A stretch of 64,000 bases of DNA from Candidatus Saccharimonadales bacterium (GCA_025451045.1 JANWLD010000001.1:407468-471467), one strand, 5' to 3'; counted from the first letter of the stretch, positions 2,424 through 63,715 are shown. Translations and numbers: made by a program. The notes: generated by a model not told the origin, from the letters alone.

Positions 2424-2692
2424 TAATTATTTGGGTCCTGTCACTTTTGGTATCCCATGAACTTCCACGATATTCGTTCATGGGAACCCTCCAAAAGAGC
2501 CGCCCAAACGGCCACAAGCATCCATTGAATGCAATATAAATAGGCTGGCTGGTGCGGAAATCGTGGGTAAAAACACAACATATAGTGTCTTGAAATATAT
2601 ATACCCGCTATATATACTAGTATTACCTCACTAATAAGTAGTTGAAAACTACTAAAAATCAACAATTAAACTAATAAAAAAGGAAAGAAACG

Positions 2693-2941
2693 ATGCCAAA
2701 GAATATCACCATCTTTACTACCAACACCTGTGCTTACTGCGTCATGGTCAAGAAATGGCTAGGCGCTAAGGGCTATAACTTTGAGGAGGTCAATATCGAC
2801 CAACAGCCAGAGCGCCAAAAAGACGCTTATGAACTTAGCGGCCAACTAGCTGTCCCGGTAACTGTTGTTACTAAAGAAGATGATACCCGCGAAGTTATTG
2901 TGGGGTATAACTTGGCTCGTCTCGCCCCCGCCGTCTCCTGA
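2693..2941 (+). CDS. glutaredoxin-like protein (NrdH/YruB type)
   Basis: 82 aa with a CAYC redox motif at residues 13-16 in a thioredoxin-fold context. SD AAAGGAAAG lies upstream. Confidence 0.8.
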   Translation: MPKNITIFTTNTCAYCVMVKKWLGAKGYNFEEVNIDQQPERQKDAYELSGQLAVPVTVVTKEDDTREVIVGYNLARLAPAVS

Positions 2942-2968
2942 GCACCACACCGTTTCGCCTGCTCAAGT

Positions 2969-2996
2969 GCGGAGCACCTGACTCCGCGAAACTTTT
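2969..2996 (+). terminator. putative intrinsic terminator after the glutaredoxin gene
   Basis: GCGGAG-7 nt loop-CTCCGC stem, followed by GAAACTTTT. Confidence 0.4.
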
Positions 2997-6675: not shown

Positions 6676-7698
6676 ATGAAGACACGTGTTGCAATCAATG
6701 GTTTTGGCCGCATCGGCCGAAGTGCTTTTAAGATAGCATATGAACGGCCAGACTTGGAGATAGTAGCTATAAATGATCTTTCCGACAGTGCTACTTTGGC
6801 GCATCTTTTGAAGCACGACAGCAATTATGGCAAATACGACAAAGAAGTAAAGTCCGATGAAAACGGTTTGATTGTAAGCGGCAAACATATAAAACTTTTA
6901 AGCGAAAAAGACCCAGCCGCGCTACCTTGGAAAGAGCTGAAGATTGACGTAGTGATTGAATGCACCGGCTTCTTTACCAAAAAAGAGGGAGCGGAACTTC
7001 ATATCAAAGCCGGAGCAAAACGGGTAGTTATATCCGCGCCGACCAAAAGCCCTGATCTTGAAACAATCGTGCTGGGTGCGAATGAAGACAAGCTGGAGTC
7101 TGCAGGAGAGATAATCAGCAATGCCAGCTGTACGACCAATTCGATAGCGATGGTGATGTCGATATTGGACGAAGCGTTTGGCATCGAAAAGGCCATGCTT
7201 ACGACAGTTCACAGCTATACTGCTAGCCAGAAGCTTCAGGATGCCCCGGCCAAGGACTTGCGCGAAGCACGCAATGCGGCTGAGAATATCGTACCAACCA
7301 CCACCGGCGCGGCAATCGCGGTCGGCTTGACTTTACCGCAGTTGCAGGGCAAGTTCGACGGATTAAGCGTCCGGGTACCGACACCGGTAGTATCACTTAG
7401 CGACGTGACTGTGGTACTCAAAAAAGACGCAACCAAAGAGCAAATAAATGATGTTTTCAAAAAAGCCGCTAAAGAGCCGTTCTATCAAGGAATCCTGGGA
7501 GTCAGCGAAGAACCGTTGGTCAGCGGCGATTATATCGGCAATAGCCATTCTGGAATCGTCGACCTGCTTTTGACCAACGTAGTTGGCGGCAATTTGGCAA
7601 AAGTGGTCGTTTGGTACGACAACGAGTGGGGATATTCCAACCGTCTGGTAGAAGTTGTTGCGGACGTCGGACGATTACTGCATAATAGCTCGAAGTGA
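6676..7698 (+). CDS. gap: type I glyceraldehyde-3-phosphate dehydrogenase
   Basis: Start moved from 6613 to ATG 6676 (SD AAGGA at 6666-6670). The protein then begins MKTRVAINGFGRIGR. Catalytic SCTTNS is present. Confidence 0.9.
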   Translation: MKTRVAINGFGRIGRSAFKIAYERPDLEIVAINDLSDSATLAHLLKHDSNYGKYDKEVKSDENGLIVSGKHIKLLSEKDPAALPWKELKIDVVIECTGFFTKKEGAELHIKAGAKRVVISAPTKSPDLETIVLGANEDKLESAGEIISNASCTTNSIAMVMSILDEAFGIEKAMLTTVHSYTASQKLQDAPAKDLREARNAAENIVPTTTGAAIAVGLTLPQLQGKFDGLSVRVPTPVVSLSDVTVVLKKDATKEQINDVFKKAAKEPFYQGILGVSEEPLVSGDYIGNSHSGIVDLLLTNVVGGNLAKVVVWYDNEWGYSNRLVEVVADVGRLLHNSSK

Positions 7699-8183
7699 GA
7701 ATAGCGCTTAGTACTGACCATGCAGGGTTTGAGCAGCTTAAACTGCTCAAAGAATTTTTAATATCCAAAGGCCATGAATCTGTGGATTTTGGACCAAAAG
7801 AATTTGACGCTGAAGACGATTACCCGGACTTTATTTTTCCTGCTGCCGAGGCCGTAGCTTCTGGTGAATGTGAAGCCGGGATTATCATGGGAGGTAGCGG
7901 ACAGGGCGAAGCGATGGCCGCTAACCGTATAAAAGGCGTGCGATGTATGGTTTATTACGGTCCGGCCAAAGCTGTGGGAGCCGTTGATGCTGACGGTAAA
8001 GAATCCGCTGATGAATATGAGATACTGCGACTTTCCAAACAGCACAATAATGCCAATATGATAAGTTTTGCCGCCCGTTTTGTATCCCAGCTTGAAATAG
8101 AAAAAGCCGTAGAAATCTGGTTGAATGAACAGTTCAGCGAAGTCGAACGCCATCAGCGCAGAATAGGAAAACTGGACAAATGA
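7695..8183 (+). CDS. rpiB: ribose-5-phosphate isomerase B
   Basis: RpiB/LacAB family N-terminus MRIALSTDHAGFE...GIIMGGSGQGEAMAANR. The GTG start overlaps the gap stop. Confidence 0.85.
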   Translation: MRIALSTDHAGFEQLKLLKEFLISKGHESVDFGPKEFDAEDDYPDFIFPAAEAVASGECEAGIIMGGSGQGEAMAANRIKGVRCMVYYGPAKAVGAVDADGKESADEYEILRLSKQHNNANMISFAARFVSQLEIEKAVEIWLNEQFSEVERHQRRIGKLDK

Positions 8184-8185
8184 GC

Positions 8186-8247
8186 CCCGTAGTGAGCCTC
8201 CTAGTTGCTTCGCAAAATAACCTAAGTTCTAGGAGGTCTACTACGGG
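8186..8247 (+). repeat. GTAGTGAGC-type palindromic element, copy 1 (MITE-like)
   Basis: Termini are CCCGTAGTGAGC ... GTCTACTACGGG. The 19-position stem has 16 Watson-Crick pairs, 2 G.U pairs and 1 A-C mismatch. Identical ATGAGC flanks it at 8180-8185 and 8248-8253. Confidence 0.75.
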
Positions 8248-8880
8248 ATGAGCATTGTTTGCCCGACAGTCCTGGCTACAACCGAAGAAGAATACAAGGA
8301 GCAGATGGATCGAATAGCGCCATTTGCCGCGCGAGTTCAGATAGACCTTATGGACGGTGATTTCGCCCAGCCTAAGTCAATTGATGTTGATAAAGTCTGG
8401 TGGCCGGAAGACGTAACAGCCGATATCCATATAATGTATCGCCGACCAGGGGAATATCTTGATACGCTTATTAAACTCAAACCAAGCTTGGTTATAATCC
8501 ATGCCGAAGCCGATGTAGACCACAAGTCATTTGCCGAAAAACTACATGTCGAAGCGATTTCTGCCGGTATTTGCCTGCTAGCCGATACGCCAATAAGCCA
8601 AATCAAAGATATTATTGATGAATTTGACCATGTATTGATCTTTGGCGGTACTTTGGGTAGCTTTGGCGGTAATGCCGATTTGGCCCAGCTGGAAAAGGCC
8701 CGTCAGGCCATAGAGCTGAAACCGACTCTTGAAATCGGTTGGGATGGCGGTGTTAACGACCAAATTGCCAAACAGTTGTCGGACGGTGGAATCGACGTGC
8801 TCAACGCAGGCGGTTTTATCCAAAAAGCCGAAGACCCCAAAGCCGCCTACGAAAAGCTATTGCAACTCATTGAACAATAA
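8248..8880 (+). CDS. ribulose-phosphate 3-epimerase family protein (divergent)
   Basis: Pattern PTVL...QIDLMDGDF...DIHIMY...VIIHAEA parallels Rpe PSIL...HvDvMDGhF...DvHLM...H.E. The first metal-binding His is replaced by Gln. Confidence 0.6.
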   Translation: MSIVCPTVLATTEEEYKEQMDRIAPFAARVQIDLMDGDFAQPKSIDVDKVWWPEDVTADIHIMYRRPGEYLDTLIKLKPSLVIIHAEADVDHKSFAEKLHVEAISAGICLLADTPISQIKDIIDEFDHVLIFGGTLGSFGGNADLAQLEKARQAIELKPTLEIGWDGGVNDQIAKQLSDGGIDVLNAGGFIQKAEDPKAAYEKLLQLIEQ

Positions 8881-18307: not shown

Positions 18308-18373
18308 TTCATTAACCTTTTTATTTAATAATTACTTAATCATAATGATATTGCTAAAACGAAGTGTTGTAAA

Positions 18374-18450
18374 CCCCGTAGTGAGCTTTCGAGACCGCCA
18401 CTTTGTGGCGCTTCGCTTCTTGAGCGAACAACTCGAAAGTCTACTACGGG
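18374..18450 (+). repeat. GTAGTGAGC-type palindromic element, copy 2
   Basis: CCCCGTAGTGAGCTTTCGAG ... CTCGAAAGTCTACTACGGG with two internal mini-hairpins. Flanked by GTAAA on both sides. Confidence 0.75.
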
Positions 18451-18663
18451 GTAAAGATAGATTATTAAGCTGTATCTTTGGTATACTTTTAACACTATAT
18501 GGCAAAAAGAACTCATCTGAACGCACTTTTTTATTTGCGAAACAATTATCTGACGCGAATAGCCAGCGTGTCAGGTGAAAAAGGCGTGTTAAGTAACACG
18601 CCGCTGAACAGCATATGCTGGATAACGTGTCAGAAATTGATGCAGCAGAAAGAGGTTGTTTAG

Positions 18664-37915: not shown

Positions 37916-37978
37916 TAGTCGTTAGTGATGAGTGATTAGCATACTGGTTACGATAGGTGAACTAACTACTAACGACTA
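37916..37978 (+). repeat. diverged GTAGT-type hairpin in the nusA leader
   Basis: TAGTCGTTAGTGATGAG ... CTAACTACTAACGACTA. It has the same GTNAGTGA / CTACTA core with G.U and A-C at equivalent positions. No clear flanking repeat. Confidence 0.45.
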
Positions 37979-53877: not shown

Positions 53878-54135
53878 GGGGATGTGGTGGAATTGGTAGA
53901 CATTTACCTGGTAGTAAAGTTCTGGAGGCGCGGTGGTGGAATTGGTAGACACGCTAGTTTTAGGAACTAGTGCCGCAAGGTGTGAGAGTTCGAGTCTCTC
54001 CCGCGCCACCAAAACTTTTACTACTGGGCGCTAGTCCCAGCACTAAAGCAAAGCTTAGTGCTGGACTTTGCTTAGGAACTAGCGTGAAGGTTAGCTTGGT
54101 GCGATAGCCCAAGCGCTGTCCTTTCATCCCCACCA
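53878..54135 (+). pseudogene. disrupted tRNA-Leu-like gene enclosing the intact tRNA-Leu
   Basis: Acceptor 5' strand plus D-arm lie at 53878-53903. CGCTAGT (54029-54035) and TTAGGAACTAG (54072-54082) are anticodon-arm pieces. CATCCCC+ACCA (54125-54135) is complementary to GGGGATG at the 5' end. No T-arm is present. Confidence 0.45.
53927..54011 (+). tRNA. tRNA-Leu (anticodon UAG), type II, CCA encoded
   Basis: Manual cloverleaf: acceptor GGCGCGG/CCGCGCC, D-arm GTG-GAATTGGTAGA-CAC, anticodon arm CTAGT-TTTAGGA-ACTAG, 13-nt variable arm, T-arm GAGAG-TTCGAGT-CTCTC, then ACCA. Confidence 0.9.
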
Positions 54136-54137
54136 AA

Positions 54138-54167
54138 TTGACATAAGCGGATTAAGTGTGTTATAAT
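54138..54167 (+). promoter_or_regulatory. near-consensus promoter of the hisS/his operon leader
   Basis: TTGACA (54138-54143), an 18-nt spacer ending in TGT, then TATAAT (54162-54167). The predicted TSS coincides with the A of ATG 54174. Confidence 0.65.
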
Positions 54168-54173
54168 AAAATC

Positions 54174-54236
54174 ATGGTTATAAAGCTAACTAATCAGCAT
54201 CATATACATCTATCGCCGGAGCTGTCGGTTAGTTAA
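54174..54236 (+). CDS. candidate his leader peptide MVIKLTNQHHIHLSPELSVS (20 aa, leaderless)
   Basis: ATG lies 7 nt after the -10 box. Three His codons fall within four positions (54198-54209). TAA stop at 54234-54236, followed by a terminator. Confidence 0.55.
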   Translation: MVIKLTNQHHIHLSPELSVS

Positions 54237-54259
54237 CTTTTGTCTTAATAAAAACACAT

Positions 54260-54286
54260 AACGCCGGACACGCTCCGGCGTTTTTT
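54260..54286 (+). terminator. intrinsic terminator (attenuator) in the hisS leader
   Basis: AACGCCGGA-CACGC-TCCGGCGTT followed by TTTTTT. The upstream CGCCGGAGC (54214-54222) can alternatively pair with the 3' arm GCTCCGGCG (54272-54280). Confidence 0.75.
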
Positions 54287-54331
54287 ATAGATTTAATAAA
54301 TATTAGAATATACTTTAACGAAAGGAAAGTT

Positions 54332-55624
54332 ATGAAAAAGGGAGTTGAACCCGCAATTTTGAAAGGAACCAGGGATTTTCTGCCCGCTGATATGGCGCAG
54401 AGGAATGAGGTTTTGGCCAAAATAAAAAACACTTTTGAAAAATTTGGTTACCAACAGATAGAAACACCTATCTTAAGCTATGCCGAAACGATATTAGGCA
54501 AAGAAAAAGAGAACAGTCAGAAGATGGCTTATTCGTTCAAAGATTATGGCGAGCGCGATATTGCCTTGCCGTTTGACTTGACCATGCCTTTTTCCCGGTT
54601 TGTTGCGGCTAACTGGCGGGATCTGCCGATACCGTTCAAGCGCTTCCAAATCCAGCGGGTATGGCGCGCCGAACGGCCGCAACGCGGGCGTCTGCGTGAA
54701 TTTTACCAATGCGACGTAGATATCATCGGTTCAAACGAGCTGGTCTGCGAGGCTGAAATTGCCAAATTGATTACTCAGGTTTTCGATGAGCTAAAAATCA
54801 AAGATATAAAAATACGCGTAAATTCGCGGAAACTACTAAATGAAATATTGACTGGGTTCGGTGTCGAAAAAGATAACCTGATACCAGCTATACGGCTGAT
54901 AGATAAACTGGACAAAATCGACAACACGGCGGTAGTAGAAGGGCTAAAGAAGCTAGGTATAAAAAACGCCGCCGAGATTATCGGGGTACTCAAAACGGAT
55001 AAAGACAACCAAGCCACCCTGAAACAGCTTGAAGCATACGATACGACGGACTTGCAGGAATTTTTGCGTTTGAGCCGTGAATTCGGAGTTGATGAAACGC
55101 GATTGGTACTTGATCCCGGCCTGGCACGAGGGCTGGATTATTACACCGGAATAATCTTTGAAGTTGTTTCAAGCGATGAAAGCCTTGGTACTATCTGCGC
55201 CGGCGGCCGTTATGATGATTTGTCGGCGATGTTCTCAAGCAAGGAATTCTCCGGTATCGGCGTATCCTTTGGCTTCGAGCGAATCATGCTGTTTATGCAG
55301 GAAAACGGGCTTATTGCCGACGGCAAGCCAAGTTCCAGAGTATTGATAACGGTTTTTGACGAAGGTTCGCTGGATGGGTCGATAAAAATCTACAAATCAC
55401 TGCTCAAAGCCAGTGTTCCGGCGGAGATTTATCTGGATGAAACCAACCTCTCCAAACAGTTTAAATATGCTGATAAAAAGAATATACCGTTTGTCGTAGT
55501 GCAAGGCCCGGATGAGCTTCGCGACAACGAGGTGATTGTACGAAGAATGAGTAATGGCAACCAAAAGAAAATTCCTGCCAGCCAGCTTGCTTCCTACATA
55601 GCAGGTTATTATGAAGCGAACTAA
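54332..55624 (+). CDS. hisS: histidine--tRNA ligase
   Basis: Class II motif 2 (RVWRAERPQRGRLREFYQCDVDIIG), GGRYDDL, motif 3 (GVSFGFERI) and a complete C-terminal anticodon-binding domain. Confidence 0.85.
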   Translation: MKKGVEPAILKGTRDFLPADMAQRNEVLAKIKNTFEKFGYQQIETPILSYAETILGKEKENSQKMAYSFKDYGERDIALPFDLTMPFSRFVAANWRDLPIPFKRFQIQRVWRAERPQRGRLREFYQCDVDIIGSNELVCEAEIAKLITQVFDELKIKDIKIRVNSRKLLNEILTGFGVEKDNLIPAIRLIDKLDKIDNTAVVEGLKKLGIKNAAEIIGVLKTDKDNQATLKQLEAYDTTDLQEFLRLSREFGVDETRLVLDPGLARGLDYYTGIIFEVVSSDESLGTICAGGRYDDLSAMFSSKEFSGIGVSFGFERIMLFMQENGLIADGKPSSRVLITVFDEGSLDGSIKIYKSLLKASVPAEIYLDETNLSKQFKYADKKNIPFVVVQGPDELRDNEVIVRRMSNGNQKKIPASQLASYIAGYYEAN

Positions 55625-56237
55625 TATCCGAATAGCCATCCAAAAATCCGGCCGGTTGAGAGCAAAGAGCGAGAAGCTGTTAAATGAATGGGGCATTGAC
55701 TGTGAAGCCGATAATAAAGGCCGGTTGGTCATTCCCTGCAACGGAGGCGAATTTGAGATTTTGTTTGTACGTTATGGCGATATTCCGGAGTATGTAGCCA
55801 GCGGGGTGGCTGATTTCGGTATCGTCGGCCAGAATATCTTGTATGAAGACCGGTTTAATGTTGGCGTGGTCAAGCAGTTGGGCTTTGGCGAATGCCGTTT
55901 GATTGTTGCCGCTCCAAAGCGTTCATCGATAAAAACGGTGGCGGATTTGGAAGGCGAACGCATAGCGACATCTTACCCGAACAGCTTGCGAAAATTCCTG
56001 AAAAAAGAGCGTTTGGGCGCGACTATCATCAAAATCCGCGGCGGAGTGGAAGCCGCTCCGGCCATAGGCTTGGCTGACGCCGTGTGCGACCTTACCCAGA
56101 CGGGTAAGACTTTGGACGCCAACGGACTGAAAATAATCGCTACAGTGCTGGAATCCCAGGCTGTATTGATTGAATCCAAATTCTTATCGGCCAAAGCCGA
56201 AAAGTTCAAAGAAAAAGTGTTACAGGCCGCATCATGA
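55611..56237 (+). CDS. hisG: ATP phosphoribosyltransferase, short form
   Basis: 208-aa HisG catalytic core without the C-terminal regulatory domain. The ATG overlaps the hisS 3' end by 14 nt. Confidence 0.9.
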   Translation: MKRTNIRIAIQKSGRLRAKSEKLLNEWGIDCEADNKGRLVIPCNGGEFEILFVRYGDIPEYVASGVADFGIVGQNILYEDRFNVGVVKQLGFGECRLIVAAPKRSSIKTVADLEGERIATSYPNSLRKFLKKERLGATIIKIRGGVEAAPAIGLADAVCDLTQTGKTLDANGLKIIATVLESQAVLIESKFLSAKAEKFKEKVLQAAS

Positions 56238-56833
56238 TAGCCGTTGTTGATTATGACGCCGGTAATATCGGCTCGGTTGCCAATGCCTTAAAGCGTTTGG
56301 GGGCTAAGTTTGAAGTTACTTCCGATACCGACACAATACGCAAAGCCGACGGAGTAATCTTCCCCGGCCAAGGCAGAGCTGGGCCGGCTTTGAAGTCGCT
56401 TCAAAAATCCGGCCTGGACAAGCTGTTGCCAAGTTTAAAACAACCGTTTCTTGGAATTTGCCTAGGGATGCAGTTAATGGTTGAAAAACTGGAAGAAGAT
56501 AATCAAACCGGGCTGGGAATCGTTCCGGGCAAGTGCGAACTTTTTAAAGATATCAGTCCGGTGCCGCACATGGGCTGGAACAAAGTTAATATTGTGCAGG
56601 ACTCCAAGCTCCTTGCTGGCCTTAAAAGCGGTTCTTACCAGTATTTTGTGCACAGTTACGCTGTTAAAACCGATAAGGAGTTCACTGTTGCGGTTACCGA
56701 TTATGGCGGAGAATTTGCCAGCGCGGTTAACAGAGATAACTTTTATGGCGTCCAATTTCACCCTGAGAAGTCAGCAGAAGCCGGCGAGCAGATACTTAAT
56801 AATTTTTTAATAATCTGTGGAGAGAAAAGGTGA
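56234..56833 (+). CDS. hisH: imidazole glycerol phosphate synthase, glutaminase subunit
   Basis: Class I GATase with GICLGMQL and HSY..., then FHPEKS. Confidence 0.9.
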   Translation: MIAVVDYDAGNIGSVANALKRLGAKFEVTSDTDTIRKADGVIFPGQGRAGPALKSLQKSGLDKLLPSLKQPFLGICLGMQLMVEKLEEDNQTGLGIVPGKCELFKDISPVPHMGWNKVNIVQDSKLLAGLKSGSYQYFVHSYAVKTDKEFTVAVTDYGGEFASAVNRDNFYGVQFHPEKSAEAGEQILNNFLIICGEKR

Positions 56834-57540
56834 TCGTTTATCCCGCTATTGATTTGATAAATCGTAAAGCTGTGCGTTTGGAGCAAGGCAATTACGACAA
56901 AAAGACAGAATACTCTGATAACCCTATTGAGATAGCCCAAAAATTTGAGTCTGAAGGCGCTGAGTATATCCACATTGTTGACTTGGACGGCGCCAAAACC
57001 AAACGGCCCGTTAATATGGACGTGATTAAAGACATTGCAAAATCCATTAACATTCCTGTTCAGGTTGGCGGCGGTATCCGTACGCTACGCTCGGTCGAAG
57101 AGTTGCTTGAATATGCCAAAAGAGTGATTATCGGTACGATTGCGGTGACCGAACCGGAGGTGTTAGAACAGATGGTTAAAAAAATCGGCTCCGACAAGAT
57201 AGTCGTATCTGTTGACTACAAGAATGGATCGCCAGCTATAAACGGCTGGTTGGAAGAAGTTAAGTTAACCACAGAGGCCTTGCAGGTCCGTCTGAGCGGT
57301 TTAGGTATCCGAACAGTCATAGTTACCGATACGGATAAAGACGGCATCTTAAGCGGTCCTAACATTAAACTGATGAAACAGTGGAAACAAGCCGGGTTTG
57401 ATACGATCTGCGCCGGAGGGGTAACAACTGTCAATGATATAGCAGAACTTGCTGCAGCCAATATCGATGGTGCGATAATTGGCAAGGCGCTTTATGAAGA
57501 TAGGATAACTTTAAAGGAAGCTATAGATGCTGGCGAATAG
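56830..57540 (+). CDS. hisA: ProFAR isomerase
   Basis: YPAIDL...VRL.QG, HIVDLDGA and GGGIR motifs. GTG start overlaps the hisH stop. Confidence 0.9.
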   Translation: MIVYPAIDLINRKAVRLEQGNYDKKTEYSDNPIEIAQKFESEGAEYIHIVDLDGAKTKRPVNMDVIKDIAKSINIPVQVGGGIRTLRSVEELLEYAKRVIIGTIAVTEPEVLEQMVKKIGSDKIVVSVDYKNGSPAINGWLEEVKLTTEALQVRLSGLGIRTVIVTDTDKDGILSGPNIKLMKQWKQAGFDTICAGGVTTVNDIAELAAANIDGAIIGKALYEDRITLKEAIDAGE

Positions 57541-58384
57541 GATCATACCGTGCATGGACATCAAAGACGGCCGGGTGGTCAAGGGCACCCATTTCAAAGA
57601 TTTGGTTGATAGCGGCGATCCGCTAGAGCTTGCTAAGAAATATGCTGACCAAGGCGCCGATGAGCTAGTACTTCTGGATATCGTCGCTACTGTCGAGGAG
57701 CGCAAAAATCGGGCCGGATTGGTCCGGGCTGTTGCCGAGGCCATTGCCATTCCTTTTAGCGTTGGCGGCGGCGTAAGCGAGCTATCCCACATCAACGAAC
57801 TTTTAAATGCCGGGGCAGATAAAGTATCTATCGGCTCGGCCGCAGTGACTGATGCGGGCTTTGTTAAAAAAGCCTGTGACAGATTCGGCTCCCAAGCGAT
57901 AATTATCTCCCTTGACCCGAAAAGAGTTATTGATAGCGGCAATCCATTTGCTTCAACAGAGCGCTCTACAGGTGAGCCTACGGCTCAGCCTGTGGCGCTA
58001 GCAGACTCAATTGAAACAAACAGATTACCGCTTTTAAAGTGGGATGTTTATATAAAAGGCGGCCGTGAAAATACCGGAGTTGATGTGATAGAATTTGCCA
58101 AAAAAATGGAAAAATTGGGCGTAGGCGAACTTTTAGTCAATAGCCTTGACCGCGACGGTACTAAAAAAGGCTTTGACATAGAGCTTTTAGATAAAATATC
58201 AAAATCTGTGAATATTCCGGTGATTGCCAGTAGTGGTGCCGGCAGGATCGATGATTTTGTGGAAGTCTTTAAAAGAACCGGTGTCACGGCGGCATTGGGC
58301 GCGTCTGTGTTTCACGGGCGGCAATTTACAGTTGGGGACGTAAAGGCTAGACTAAAACTAGAGGGAATAGAGGTCAGACAATGA
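57527..58384 (+). CDS. hisF: imidazole glycerol phosphate synthase, cyclase subunit
   Basis: RIIPCMDIKDGRVVKG, DRDGTKKGFD and ASSGAG motifs. It has a loop about 30 aa longer than compact HisF proteins. Confidence 0.9.
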   Translation: MLANRIIPCMDIKDGRVVKGTHFKDLVDSGDPLELAKKYADQGADELVLLDIVATVEERKNRAGLVRAVAEAIAIPFSVGGGVSELSHINELLNAGADKVSIGSAAVTDAGFVKKACDRFGSQAIIISLDPKRVIDSGNPFASTERSTGEPTAQPVALADSIETNRLPLLKWDVYIKGGRENTGVDVIEFAKKMEKLGVGELLVNSLDRDGTKKGFDIELLDKISKSVNIPVIASSGAGRIDDFVEVFKRTGVTAALGASVFHGRQFTVGDVKARLKLEGIEVRQ

Positions 58385-61860: not shown

Positions 61861-61940
61861 TCCATTTACAATAAAATCCTTACGCTTGCAAACAGACTGT
61901 CTTGATGATATTGTCGGAAGAATTAAGGAGTAATTATTTA

Positions 61941-63374
61941 ATGGCAGATTTAAACCCTGGTGAAGTTTTAGAACGTTTTAGAGAAGATTTGGACAGAGTA
62001 CACCAGGTCGAAGATAGTTGCGGCACAATCGAAGCGGATGCGCTAAATGCTGCTAGTGCTGCTTCCGAATTTGCTGAAAGTGCTAAAAGTATAATGGATA
62101 GCGCTACGAGAGATACGGAATCCGTTGTAAAACCGGCATTAGCAGCTATAGAAGAAGCTGCTGGCCGAAATCCCAGTAGCGATGAAGCGATAAGGGCTAT
62201 CATGTCCGTCAAAGGCAAGACAGATGAAGAGATAGAAGCCCATTTTGAGCATTTCGAGGCAACCAGTGAAGAAGAACAGCCGGTAATCGTCATAGGCGGC
62301 AGCGAGAAAGGACTTGGACTTGAAGGACTAATATCAGTTACTTATGGGCGCACAGCTACCAAAAACGAAATCAGATCTTTTCTCAAGACCTATACGGGTC
62401 ACGGAACGCATGTTGATAGCAGGAAAAGGGGGCTAGGGGAGCGTTATATTGGTATACTGGCGAAATCCCAAAGGGCATTCTCAGTCAGTACATCAGATGA
62501 GTATCCTATTGATTTATTTGCGGATCAACCAACTGCTGAGAGATTTTCTTTGATTTCAGCAAATTCTAATATGGCTGCCCATCCTTTTGAAGAGATACAT
62601 TTTGCTGGAAATGCGGTAGAGGTCAGAGATATGACTGAATCAATAGTAGGCGCTTATAGGAAACCGTCTGTAGCGGATGCTATGGCAGTCCAAAGTCTTG
62701 GCCTTCCAACCATGGTGGCATATGGAGAAGATGCCGTTTTAGAACTTTCGGCAAGAATAGGCGAAACAAATCCTCAGAGCAGAATTCTTGCCAGACGATG
62801 CATAGAAGGACTTGGCATAGACATGGAATATATTGCCGATGAGTTACCTGATGAAGACATTCCTAATCTATCTGAAAAGATAGTTTCAGACTTTGGTAAC
62901 CATTTGTTCGTAAAGTTTGACGAAGCTTTAACCGAGTTTTTGCGCCATGGCGGAACTCCCGCTGCTGATCATATTAGAACGTTGGCTTTTTTGGCTCCTA
63001 TGCAAAAGGCGATAGGTTATGCGCCGCCTACTGTACTTGATAAAATGGTTGGAGAATTGTCATCTCAAATAAACGTGAACTATTCTTTTGTAGAAGGTGT
63101 AGAAGTGACGGTTGCGGCAGTTAAGCCTTTGTCACCAACTGAAGCATCGGAGACTAAGTCAGTAAAAAGTGAATTGGAAAAGTTAATGGATAGAATGGAA
63201 GAATTAGGTATAGCCTATGTCCCTAAAGATGGCCTTGATATGGAAATGTTAGCAAGAAGGGTAGAAAGACCAGCAGTAAGAAAAGAGCTGGCAAATACAT
63301 CAAAAATACACTTTGCGAAAAGAGATGATCTTAAGGTATGTGTACGAGCCTTAACTCAAGAAGACCAAAATTAA
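61941..63374 (+). CDS. hypothetical acidic protein (477 aa)
   Basis: Start moved to ATG 61941 (SD AAGGAG at 61925-61930). No P-loop or other recognisable motif. Confidence 0.6.
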   Translation: MADLNPGEVLERFREDLDRVHQVEDSCGTIEADALNAASAASEFAESAKSIMDSATRDTESVVKPALAAIEEAAGRNPSSDEAIRAIMSVKGKTDEEIEAHFEHFEATSEEEQPVIVIGGSEKGLGLEGLISVTYGRTATKNEIRSFLKTYTGHGTHVDSRKRGLGERYIGILAKSQRAFSVSTSDEYPIDLFADQPTAERFSLISANSNMAAHPFEEIHFAGNAVEVRDMTESIVGAYRKPSVADAMAVQSLGLPTMVAYGEDAVLELSARIGETNPQSRILARRCIEGLGIDMEYIADELPDEDIPNLSEKIVSDFGNHLFVKFDEALTEFLRHGGTPAADHIRTLAFLAPMQKAIGYAPPTVLDKMVGELSSQINVNYSFVEGVEVTVAAVKPLSPTEASETKSVKSELEKLMDRMEELGIAYVPKDGLDMEMLARRVERPAVRKELANTSKIHFAKRDDLKVCVRALTQEDQN

Positions 63375-63527
63375 AGAATAATATTGAGACCTATGTTGCA
63401 ATGTAGTTGACACTTTGAATTTAGTGATATAAACTATAATTTAAGAAGTAGTGGTCGGCACTGTTGTATTGGCTCAAAATTTAAGACAATTTCACAACAC
63501 TGCACGCAGTAATCTTCGCGCGCTAAC

Positions 63528-63605
63528 CCTGTAGTGAGCTCTCTCTAGCATCGTACATAACGATGCATAATCTGCCAAAGGCAGATGAGAGAGATCTACT
63601 ACGGG
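63528..63605 (+). repeat. GTAGTGAGC-type palindromic element, copy 3
   Basis: CCTGTAGTGAGCTCTCTC ... GAGAGAGATCTACTACGGG with two internal hairpins. Flanked by GCTAAC at 63522-63527 and 63606-63611. Confidence 0.75.
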
Positions 63606-63715
63606 GCTAACAGATTAAACTAATGAAAAGCTAAAGCGTATTAAAGTACTGATACGTTTGCTAATTTTATAAAACATAAAATCTAAGTTCATAAGGGAGC
63701 AACACTACAAGTTCT

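Follow-up and report, generated by a model that had tools for sequence, protein, structure and literature searches.

The window analysed here is a 64,000-nt stretch of a Candidatus Saccharimonadales bacterium (GCA_025451045.1 JANWLD010000001.1:407468-471467), and all positions are counted over its full length. Two genes of the pentose-phosphate pathway, rpiB and an rpe-like gene, follow each other on one strand and are separated by a 62-nt palindromic element (CCCGTAGTGAGCCTCCTAG…CTAGGAGGTCTACTACGGG) that is bracketed by two copies of ATGAGC (Table 1). The coordinates, repeats and element sequence given in a preliminary description of this locus proved exact. The element is laid out as CCCGTAGTGAGC-CTCCTAG-…-CTAGGAG-GTCTACTACGGG. 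The rpiB stop codon TGA lies at 8181-8183, and because the N-terminus MS(I/V)VCPT of the epimerase is kept in relatives we regard 8248 as the true rpe start. What was a 4-nt stop/start overlap is now a 64-nt spacer in which both TGA and ATG are preserved.

Table 1 Features of the rpiB/rpe junction and further copies of the element in the window. ORF, open reading frame; SD, Shine-Dalgarno sequence.
Feature	Position	Strand	Basis and remarks
rpiB (ribose-5-phosphate isomerase B)	7695..8183	+	ORF call; Pfam PF02502 LacAB_rpiB, E=4.5e-38; homologs
Left flanking repeat ATGAGC	8180..8185	+	Probable 4-nt target duplication TGAG at 8181-8184; C8185 possibly the first element base
62-nt palindromic element	8186..8247	+	Covariance-model match 8185-8248, 56 bits, E=9e-12
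Conserved left terminal repeat CCCGTAGTGAGC	8186..8197	+	Same in all scan copies, position 3 being C or T; the scan pattern demanded the sequence
Left arm of variable stem CCUCCUAG(U)	8197..8205	+	Anti-SD-like, pairs with the SD; the stem covaries in the family
Apical region	8206..8228	+	Shortened two-hairpin interior; mini-hairpin UUGC-UUC-GCAA
AGGAGG, sole SD-like sequence for rpe	8231..8236	+	11 nt before the ATG; part of the variable stem's right arm
Conserved right terminal repeat TCTACTACGGG	8237..8247	+	Alignment of copies
Right flanking repeat ATGAGC	8248..8253	+	Duplication TGAG at 8249-8252; rpe starts with the ATG at 8248-8250
rpe-like gene (ribulose-phosphate 3-epimerase family)	8248..8880	+	Pfam PF00834 Ribul_P_3_epim, E=9.4e-22
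Copy 2 of the element	18374..18451	+	68 bits; TAAA duplicated, 18370-18373 and 18452-18455; a minus-strand gene lies on one side and the gatC operon on the other
Copy 3 of the element	63527..63606	+	55 bits; CTAA duplication at 63523-63526 and 63607-63610

The preliminary description had read the hairpin as an insertion with a 6-bp target duplication that splits an rpiB-TGA/ATG-rpe overlap, and had suggested a search for empty sites with a direct ATGA overlap in relatives and for further copies with flanking repeats. We compared the junction with those on the contigs of the closest RpiB homologs, whose identities are given relative to the window RpiB. Deletion of the element together with one repeat yields GACAAATGAGCATT, which matches real empty junctions in L026 (GGATAGATGAGCGTAG; 88% identity) and L027 (GGATAAATGAGTGTAG; 86%). 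In both, TGA overlaps ATG directly, with a single ATGAGC in the L026 junction CTGGATAGATGAGCGTAG and one ATGAGY in the L027 junction TTGGATAAATGAGTGTAG, and the splitting of the overlap is thereby borne out. The relative L025 (83%) carries a different hairpin with two internal hairpins, ATGAG/T-CCCGTTAGAGC…GCTCTAACGGG-A/TGAGC (slashes mark boundaries), so that the window and L025 hold insertions of two subfamilies at one and the same site. As for the 6-bp duplication, the identity of ATGAGC on both sides stands, while the sequences indicate that the duplication itself most likely spans 4 nt (TGAG), the 6-nt identity being made up of this duplication plus element end bases and target context. 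The L024 junction (86%), AAATGATATGAGCG, exceeds the empty sites by five bases. Its sequence at 2484-2497, AAATGA-TA-TGAGCG, could be either an excision footprint, comprising a duplicated TGA(G) and the terminal T…A of an element of the family-B type described below, or a simple duplication.

The element is not alone in the window. The same termini are found again at 18375, without change, and at 63528, with one mismatch, and since shuffled sequences are expected to contain the composite pattern 0.00 times, a chance palindrome is excluded. Both recurrences are full copies, TAAA/CCCCGTAGTGAGC-TTTCGAG…CTCGAAA-GTCTACTACGGGG/TAAA (copy 2) and CTAA/CCCTGTAGTGAGC-TCTCTC…GAGAGA-TCTACTACGGGG/CTAA (copy 3), and when the window is searched with a covariance model derived from 20 copies, no matches but these three appear, also with filters off. 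Copy 2 has its own empty site: the relative L069 reads GTTGTAAAGCTAGAT where the window reads GTGTTGTAAA-element-TAAAGATAGAT. For copy 3 there is no relative to compare, as the neighbouring 490-aa protein (ORF 61902-63374), in which no Pfam domain was detected, matches only itself in a collection of 5.8 billion proteins.

In addition to the copies in the window, scanning public collections for the exact termini gave 64 loci elsewhere (23 from genomes and 41 from metagenomes) with 57 distinct copies. All genome records named to phylum among the 23 loci are Patescibacteria, mostly Saccharibacteria, along with Parcubacteria and Kerfeldbacteria. In a copy found by the model alone (L047 196-279) both arms of the terminal stem have changed in a compensating way, to CCCAG…CTGGG. 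Viral contigs yielded no copies of the main family and six family-B-like hairpins, whose flanking repeats are weak or missing. Family members are non-coding, measure about 60-85 nt and stand in either orientation relative to the flanking genes; many start 2-20 nt past a stop codon, again in either orientation. This Patescibacteria-wide family matches no Rfam family and nothing in the searched literature: in the window only a tRNA reaches the Rfam gathering score, the loci L005, L012 and L022, with typical copies, give no relevant match at E<=1, and we found no paper containing CCCGTAGTGAGC nor any on miniature inverted-repeat transposable elements (MITEs) or repetitive extragenic palindromic (REP) sequences in Saccharibacteria, Patescibacteria or the candidate phyla radiation (CPR).

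Removal of look-alikes left 37 independent copies. Direct repeats of at least 4 nt flank 28 of them, compared with a mean of 3.2 and a maximum of 9 in 2000 permutations of the flanks, so flanking repeats like those at the rpiB/rpe junction are present at most copies. Because the left flanking 6-mer always retains C and the right one always retains G where the two differ, we describe the element as N-CCYG…CRGG-N' (N and N' being C:G or T:A) with a 4-nt, occasionally 5-nt, duplication. Under this model the window copy duplicated TGAG in the target A/TGAG/C.

The choice of target is biased. TTGA or TCAA makes up 12 of 24 scorable duplications but 1.1% of intergenic 4-mers; TTAA is never duplicated. 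Full target sites read GTTGAC or GTCAAC, and many could plausibly serve as -35 boxes. A TAnnnT lies 16-18 nt downstream of 6/11 TTGAC-type sites versus 24% of all intergenic TTGAC, from which we rejected promoter targeting as such; the bias is toward the sequence and only partly toward promoters. In L045 and L046 the duplication is the TATAA of a -10-like box, and some target sites, such as those in L049 and L039, overlap the stop codon of the preceding gene. The TATAAT in L046 (1960-1984; TATAATttaaggATG) lies just 6 nt before an ATG, and this spacing suggests a leaderless mRNA.

Start codons of the form ATGAGY were hit by four independent insertions, namely the window copy, L025, and family-B copies in L045 and at gyrB in L002. 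The last of these puts 77 nt between the original SD GAGAGGG and the gyrB ATG, and the upstream duplicate of the start codon is GTG instead of ATG. We considered whether the family-B copies of L025 and L002 are orthologs and rejected this, as tblastn and ORF reading place the L002 copy at the gyrB start. The two copies are about 88% identical by eye (identity was not computed) and come from different genomes; because such near-alike copies occupy non-homologous loci, they are direct evidence of movement. In L002, the roughly 320 nt upstream of gyrB hold a pair of elements that belong to different subfamilies (2498-2971, minus strand).

The anatomy of the family is that of a conserved frame around a changing interior. 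The left end is CCCYGTAGTGAGC and the right end (G/A)TCTACTACGGGG, forming a slightly imperfect terminal inverted repeat; of this, CCCYGTAGT…ACTACGGGG is a perfect 9-bp repeat that extends to 12-13 bp with fixed differences. In the RNAalifold consensus, CCCYGUAGU-GA pairs with UC-(bulged U)-ACUACGGGG, followed by an internal loop of GC versus G/A and then by a 7-bp stem. Here the family pairs GA/UC with a bulged U, where the preliminary description had G.U/A-C/G.U for the window copy. The 7-bp stem is variable in sequence and strictly paired. Across 44 distinct sequences, 99.2% of cells pair (slid controls: 44-51%), and double-change cells number 83 against 19.4 ± 3.3 in shuffles, none of 500 reaching that value. 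With a single G.U in 308 cells the stem is near-pure Watson-Crick; usually it is TTTCGAG/CTCGAAA.

Beyond the stem, 33/37 independent copies have exactly two hairpins (mean interior z = -4.2), while the window copy at 8186, with its short and weak apex, is among the four without two clear hairpins. The two inner hairpins show no sequence relationship, and neither is an inverted copy of the other. Similar copies differ mostly in loops or by compensatory stem changes, as L014 and L058 do in all three helices, and compensatory differences also separate the L025 and L002 copies. On the element strand the inner hairpins contain 12 internal G.U and 3 A.C mismatches, a small contrast that depends on the folding program. 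The covariance model scores the element strand about 25-30 bits above its complement.

Related subfamilies have CCYGT…ACRGG ends in common. Family B has the form (T)CCCGTTAGAG…CTCTAACGGG(A). An AT-rich subfamily of 128-162 nt with terminal repeats of about 25 nt and ATTCAT flanks occurs in one groundwater Patescibacteria genome (L010, L011, L020, L023, L057, L059), where its recurrence at contig ends suggests a copy number high enough to break the assembly. Short forms of about 30 nt are tandem or nested. A tandem array in L038 (12372-12598; also in L053 and L067) repeats a 42-nt unit 5.4 times, the unit being made up of a short hairpin that has the family termini, CCTGTAGTGAGC-GACGCAGGA-GCTCTACTACGG, and the spacer ATTGTTAAT. 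It adjoins Bacteroidota-like genes, and the motif may on this ground occur outside Patescibacteria. In L015 (1185-1292) a long copy sits inside the loop of an inverted short copy, and L040 (1850-1909), L043 and L044 hold a variant hairpin within another hairpin. These nested copies suggest that the loop of the element is itself an insertion target.

At the rpiB/rpe junction the minimum-energy fold of 8170-8265 has -40.2 kcal/mol (z = -5.3), a stability that none of 200 shuffles equals, and the hairpin alone has -31.5 kcal/mol. The fold reproduces the stem that the preliminary description had proposed, 16 Watson-Crick pairs plus G.U / A-C / G.U. Its prediction that the only SD of rpe is sequestered likewise holds thermodynamically: AGGAGG (8231-8236) pairs with CCUCCU (8197-8202) with a probability above 0.99, and each SD base has a probability of at most 0.001 of being unpaired, whereas the rpe AUG, placed in a small internal loop, is unpaired with a probability of at least 0.988. 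Masking up to 8196 by a ribosome terminating at 8181-8183 leaves the SD paired, the residual stem alone having -13.7 kcal/mol. The burial of the rpe SD in the stem is thus shown computationally, in the modelled fold; any regulatory effect on rpe is putative.

The SD lies within the variable, covarying stem and is peculiar to the window copy rather than a feature of the family. Ancestral-type empty junctions have only a weak GGA-type SD-like sequence upstream, and for this reason the ancestral epimerase probably relied on translational coupling. Because AGGAGG/CCUCCU occupies a stem that is free to vary in the family, the SD probably dates from after the insertion and was matched by compensating changes in the opposite arm.

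Overall, we consider it probable, at roughly three chances in four, that the 62-nt hairpin is a copy of a MITE-like family in Patescibacteria whose members are mobile palindromes of very small size (about 60-85 nt) without coding capacity. The family has terminal inverted repeats, target duplications, empty orthologous sites with one copy of the duplicated sequence, and several copies per genome (three in the 64 kb of the window). That copies face either way relative to their neighbours, with no conserved promoter ahead of them and rarely a T-run behind, speaks for an element at the level of DNA and not one bound to a transcript. Its small size, conserved fold and choice of targets are unusual. 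The element inserted at A/TGAG/C of the ancestral rpiB-TGA/ATG-rpe overlap, presumably through a staggered cut by a transposase that acts in trans and recognises the conserved ends. About 4 nt were duplicated, the upstream copy retaining the rpiB stop and the downstream copy the rpe start. The SD/anti-SD pair may have arisen afterwards by compensated change, restoring initiation once termination-reinitiation coupling had been lost, and rpe translation would then be damped or would depend on ribosomes and helicases opening the stem.

Several observations weigh against a MITE-like element. A Pfam scan of the 46 window ORFs revealed no transposase, integrase or HUH enzyme, all of them being housekeeping or unassigned, and about 420 kb of related loci contain no autonomous element with the family termini. 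The exact conservation of termini among scan copies was imposed by the search pattern. Copies sharing one genome are alike only in their termini and so give no sign of a recent burst, and 9/37 copies lack a flanking repeat. As the element ends in C…G, the duplication length is ambiguous between 4, 5 and 6 nt. Lastly, the strict conservation of the interior fold is unlike what a MITE mobilised by a DDE-type transposase needs and suggests selection on a single-stranded form or a host function. In the related loci, left and right termini separated by more than 170 nt proved in every case to be half-sites that occur within genes by chance. An ORF lying between elements in L011 was tried as a transposase partner and rejected as a release-factor-like housekeeping gene.

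The conserved fold leads to a second reading, tentative and compatible with the first, in which the element is or became a structured module that serves the host: it inserted as a mobile element but was kept for its fold. Such a module might protect the 3' end of the upstream mRNA, stall terminating ribosomes, set the rpiB:rpe translation ratio or act as a processing site. The two-hairpin architecture that persists over unrelated interiors, the strong covariation of the stem and the excess of G.U over A.C on the element strand all fit this idea, as does the restriction of differences to loops or compensatory stem changes among similar copies at conserved flanks (L014/L058, L005/L016, L012/L031/L048). 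The position of many copies shortly after a stop codon fits as well, and REPs of Escherichia coli that lie about 15 nt or less from a stop codon reportedly lower expression of the upstream gene. However, copies are found in both orientations to transcription and do not present a single RNA sequence, and the near absence of G.U from the variable stem is unusual for a selected RNA helix and fits a DNA palindrome better. The G.U contrast is small and program-dependent, and close relatives do well without the element. Besides a host function, the maintenance of the fold suggests a single-stranded intermediate or arm-to-arm correction within palindromes.

A third reading is that the element is of the REP/REPIN type and travels in single-stranded form with the help of a domesticated HUH tyrosine transposase, either a REP-associated tyrosine transposase (RAYT) or an IS200/IS605-like TnpA, with GTAG and the hairpin as signals. 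We regard this as improbable. It would account for the GTAG on the 5' side of the stem (CCC-GTAG-TGAGC, with variants GTTAG, GTCAG and GTGG), for the REP-sized short forms with their tandem arrays and nesting, for the strand difference in model score, and for the conservation of fold rather than sequence, as expected for hairpin-recognising enzymes. IS200/IS605-type insertion, however, leaves the target unduplicated and recognises it on a single strand, whereas the duplications seen here differ between copies and use one target in both orientations (TTGA and TCAA). On reading the sequences we saw no correlation of the duplication with any variable part of the element, and a guide model of the IS200 kind, in which the variable part specifies the flanking repeat, was discarded for the same reason. 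The inner hairpins, not being inverted copies of each other, do not form a REP doublet. A local tblastn of 514 kb with an IS200 TnpA sequence, a weak test, found no convincing Y1 transposase, and the window ORFs include none.

We find it hardly credible that the element could be a small RNA gene in its own right, an intrinsic terminator, or a palindrome arisen by chance and flanked by ATGAGC through coincidence: the very stable hairpin and the intergenic position would suit such readings, but positions upstream of -5 carry no information, a T-run (T4+) lies downstream of only 2/36 copies, the window hairpin is followed by AUGAGC and not by a U-run, and empty sites, recurrent termini and flanking repeats exclude coincidence.

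Returning to the MITE-like family, we think it possible, if unlikely, that it represents a distinct class of structure-constrained mini-transposons of the CPR. These would be three-way-junction elements of 60-85 nt whose ends are conserved across Patescibacteria classes, which integrate in a sequence-specific manner at GTYRAC (-35-like TTGAC) and at ATGAG stop/start junctions, whose duplication regenerates the signal, whose enzyme possibly acts on a folded single strand, and which are retained as insulators of translation or transcription. The elements land in -35 boxes and in stop/start overlaps, and would survive there because the duplication rebuilds the signal that was split. Patescibacteria genomes are very small and tightly packed and are thought to be repeat-poor. 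In these hard-to-grow organisms, occupied and empty sites are natural experiments on translational coupling and promoter architecture, and the family provides a marker for strain-level population genetics. The insertion studied here predicts an altered expression ratio of two consecutive pentose-phosphate enzymes, those encoded by rpiB and rpe. The combination of MITE-like duplications, REP-like size and RNA-like fold conservation raises the question of which enzyme mobilises the elements and how the fold is maintained.

Other features of the window lie apart from this family. The leader upstream of nusA (37916-37978) contains an 18-nt imperfect inverted repeat, TAGTCGTTAGTGATGAGT / ACTAACTACTAACGACTA, that is not a family member. 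Directly downstream of a tRNA gene (53927-54008) there is a long stable hairpin at 54027-54086, and the whole 323-nt spacer has z = -6.7. Further on, a perfect promoter, TTGACA-17 nt-TATAAT, occupies 54139-54167 and is followed after about 90 nt by a GC hairpin and T-run (AACGCCGGACACGCTCCGGCGTTTTTT, about 54261-54287). By these signals the region 54139-54290, between the tRNA gene and hisS, is a candidate gene for a small RNA of about 110 nt; it has no Rfam match at the gathering score. Homologs of hisG, hisH, hisA and hisF stand in a row at 55611-58381, adjoining hisS. Histidine biosynthesis genes are unexpected in a reduced genome of the Saccharibacteria type.

Among known systems, the Correia or Correia repeat enclosed element (CREE) MITEs of Neisseria are likewise short elements without coding capacity; they have terminal inverted repeats and a target-site duplication, occur in many intergenic copies and differ in insertion between relatives, and they too fold into hairpins when transcribed and can alter the expression of neighbours. 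They measure about 100-400 nt and duplicate TA, whereas the elements described here have 60-85 nt and duplicate 4(-5) nt at TTGA/TCAA/TGAG. Moreover, no parent insertion sequence (IS) is known here, copies within a genome share only their ends of about 12 nt, and the two-hairpin interior is kept by compensatory change. REP/REPIN sequences with their RAYT resemble our elements in hairpin size, a GTAG-type motif, tandem clusters, long persistence within lineages, a position just downstream of genes, and a structure for which both a long hairpin and a 'clover' are possible drawings (Bertels and Rainey 2011, PMC3116915). In contrast to these, our copies have flanking duplications, their inner hairpins are not inverted REPs and no RAYT was seen in the window; REPINs also form near-identical populations within a genome, which our copies do not.

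Integron attC sites show the same principle of a conserved terminal sequence with the rest conserved as fold, including bulged bases, a variable apex from short loop to branched hairpins, and strand asymmetry. We rejected an assignment to attC: in place of RYYYAAC/GTTRRRY core sites our elements end in CCCGTAG…CTACGGG, each stands alone among housekeeping genes with neither a cassette array nor an integrase, and the hairpin is bordered by direct repeats. The IS1380 family and piggyBac, as known from ISfinder and the literature, have CC(C)…(G)GG ends, 4-5 bp duplications at T/A-rich targets and precise empty sites, a likeness that rests on few bases; no such transposase was found in the window and TTAA is never duplicated. 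A similar genomic position is taken by the mycobacterial interspersed repetitive units (MIRUs) of Mycobacterium tuberculosis, small repeats at operon stop/start overlaps that leave both reading frames intact. MIRUs, however, are direct tandem repeats with small ORFs that maintain coupling, whereas the element at the rpiB/rpe junction is a palindrome that breaks coupling and holds the SD in its stem.

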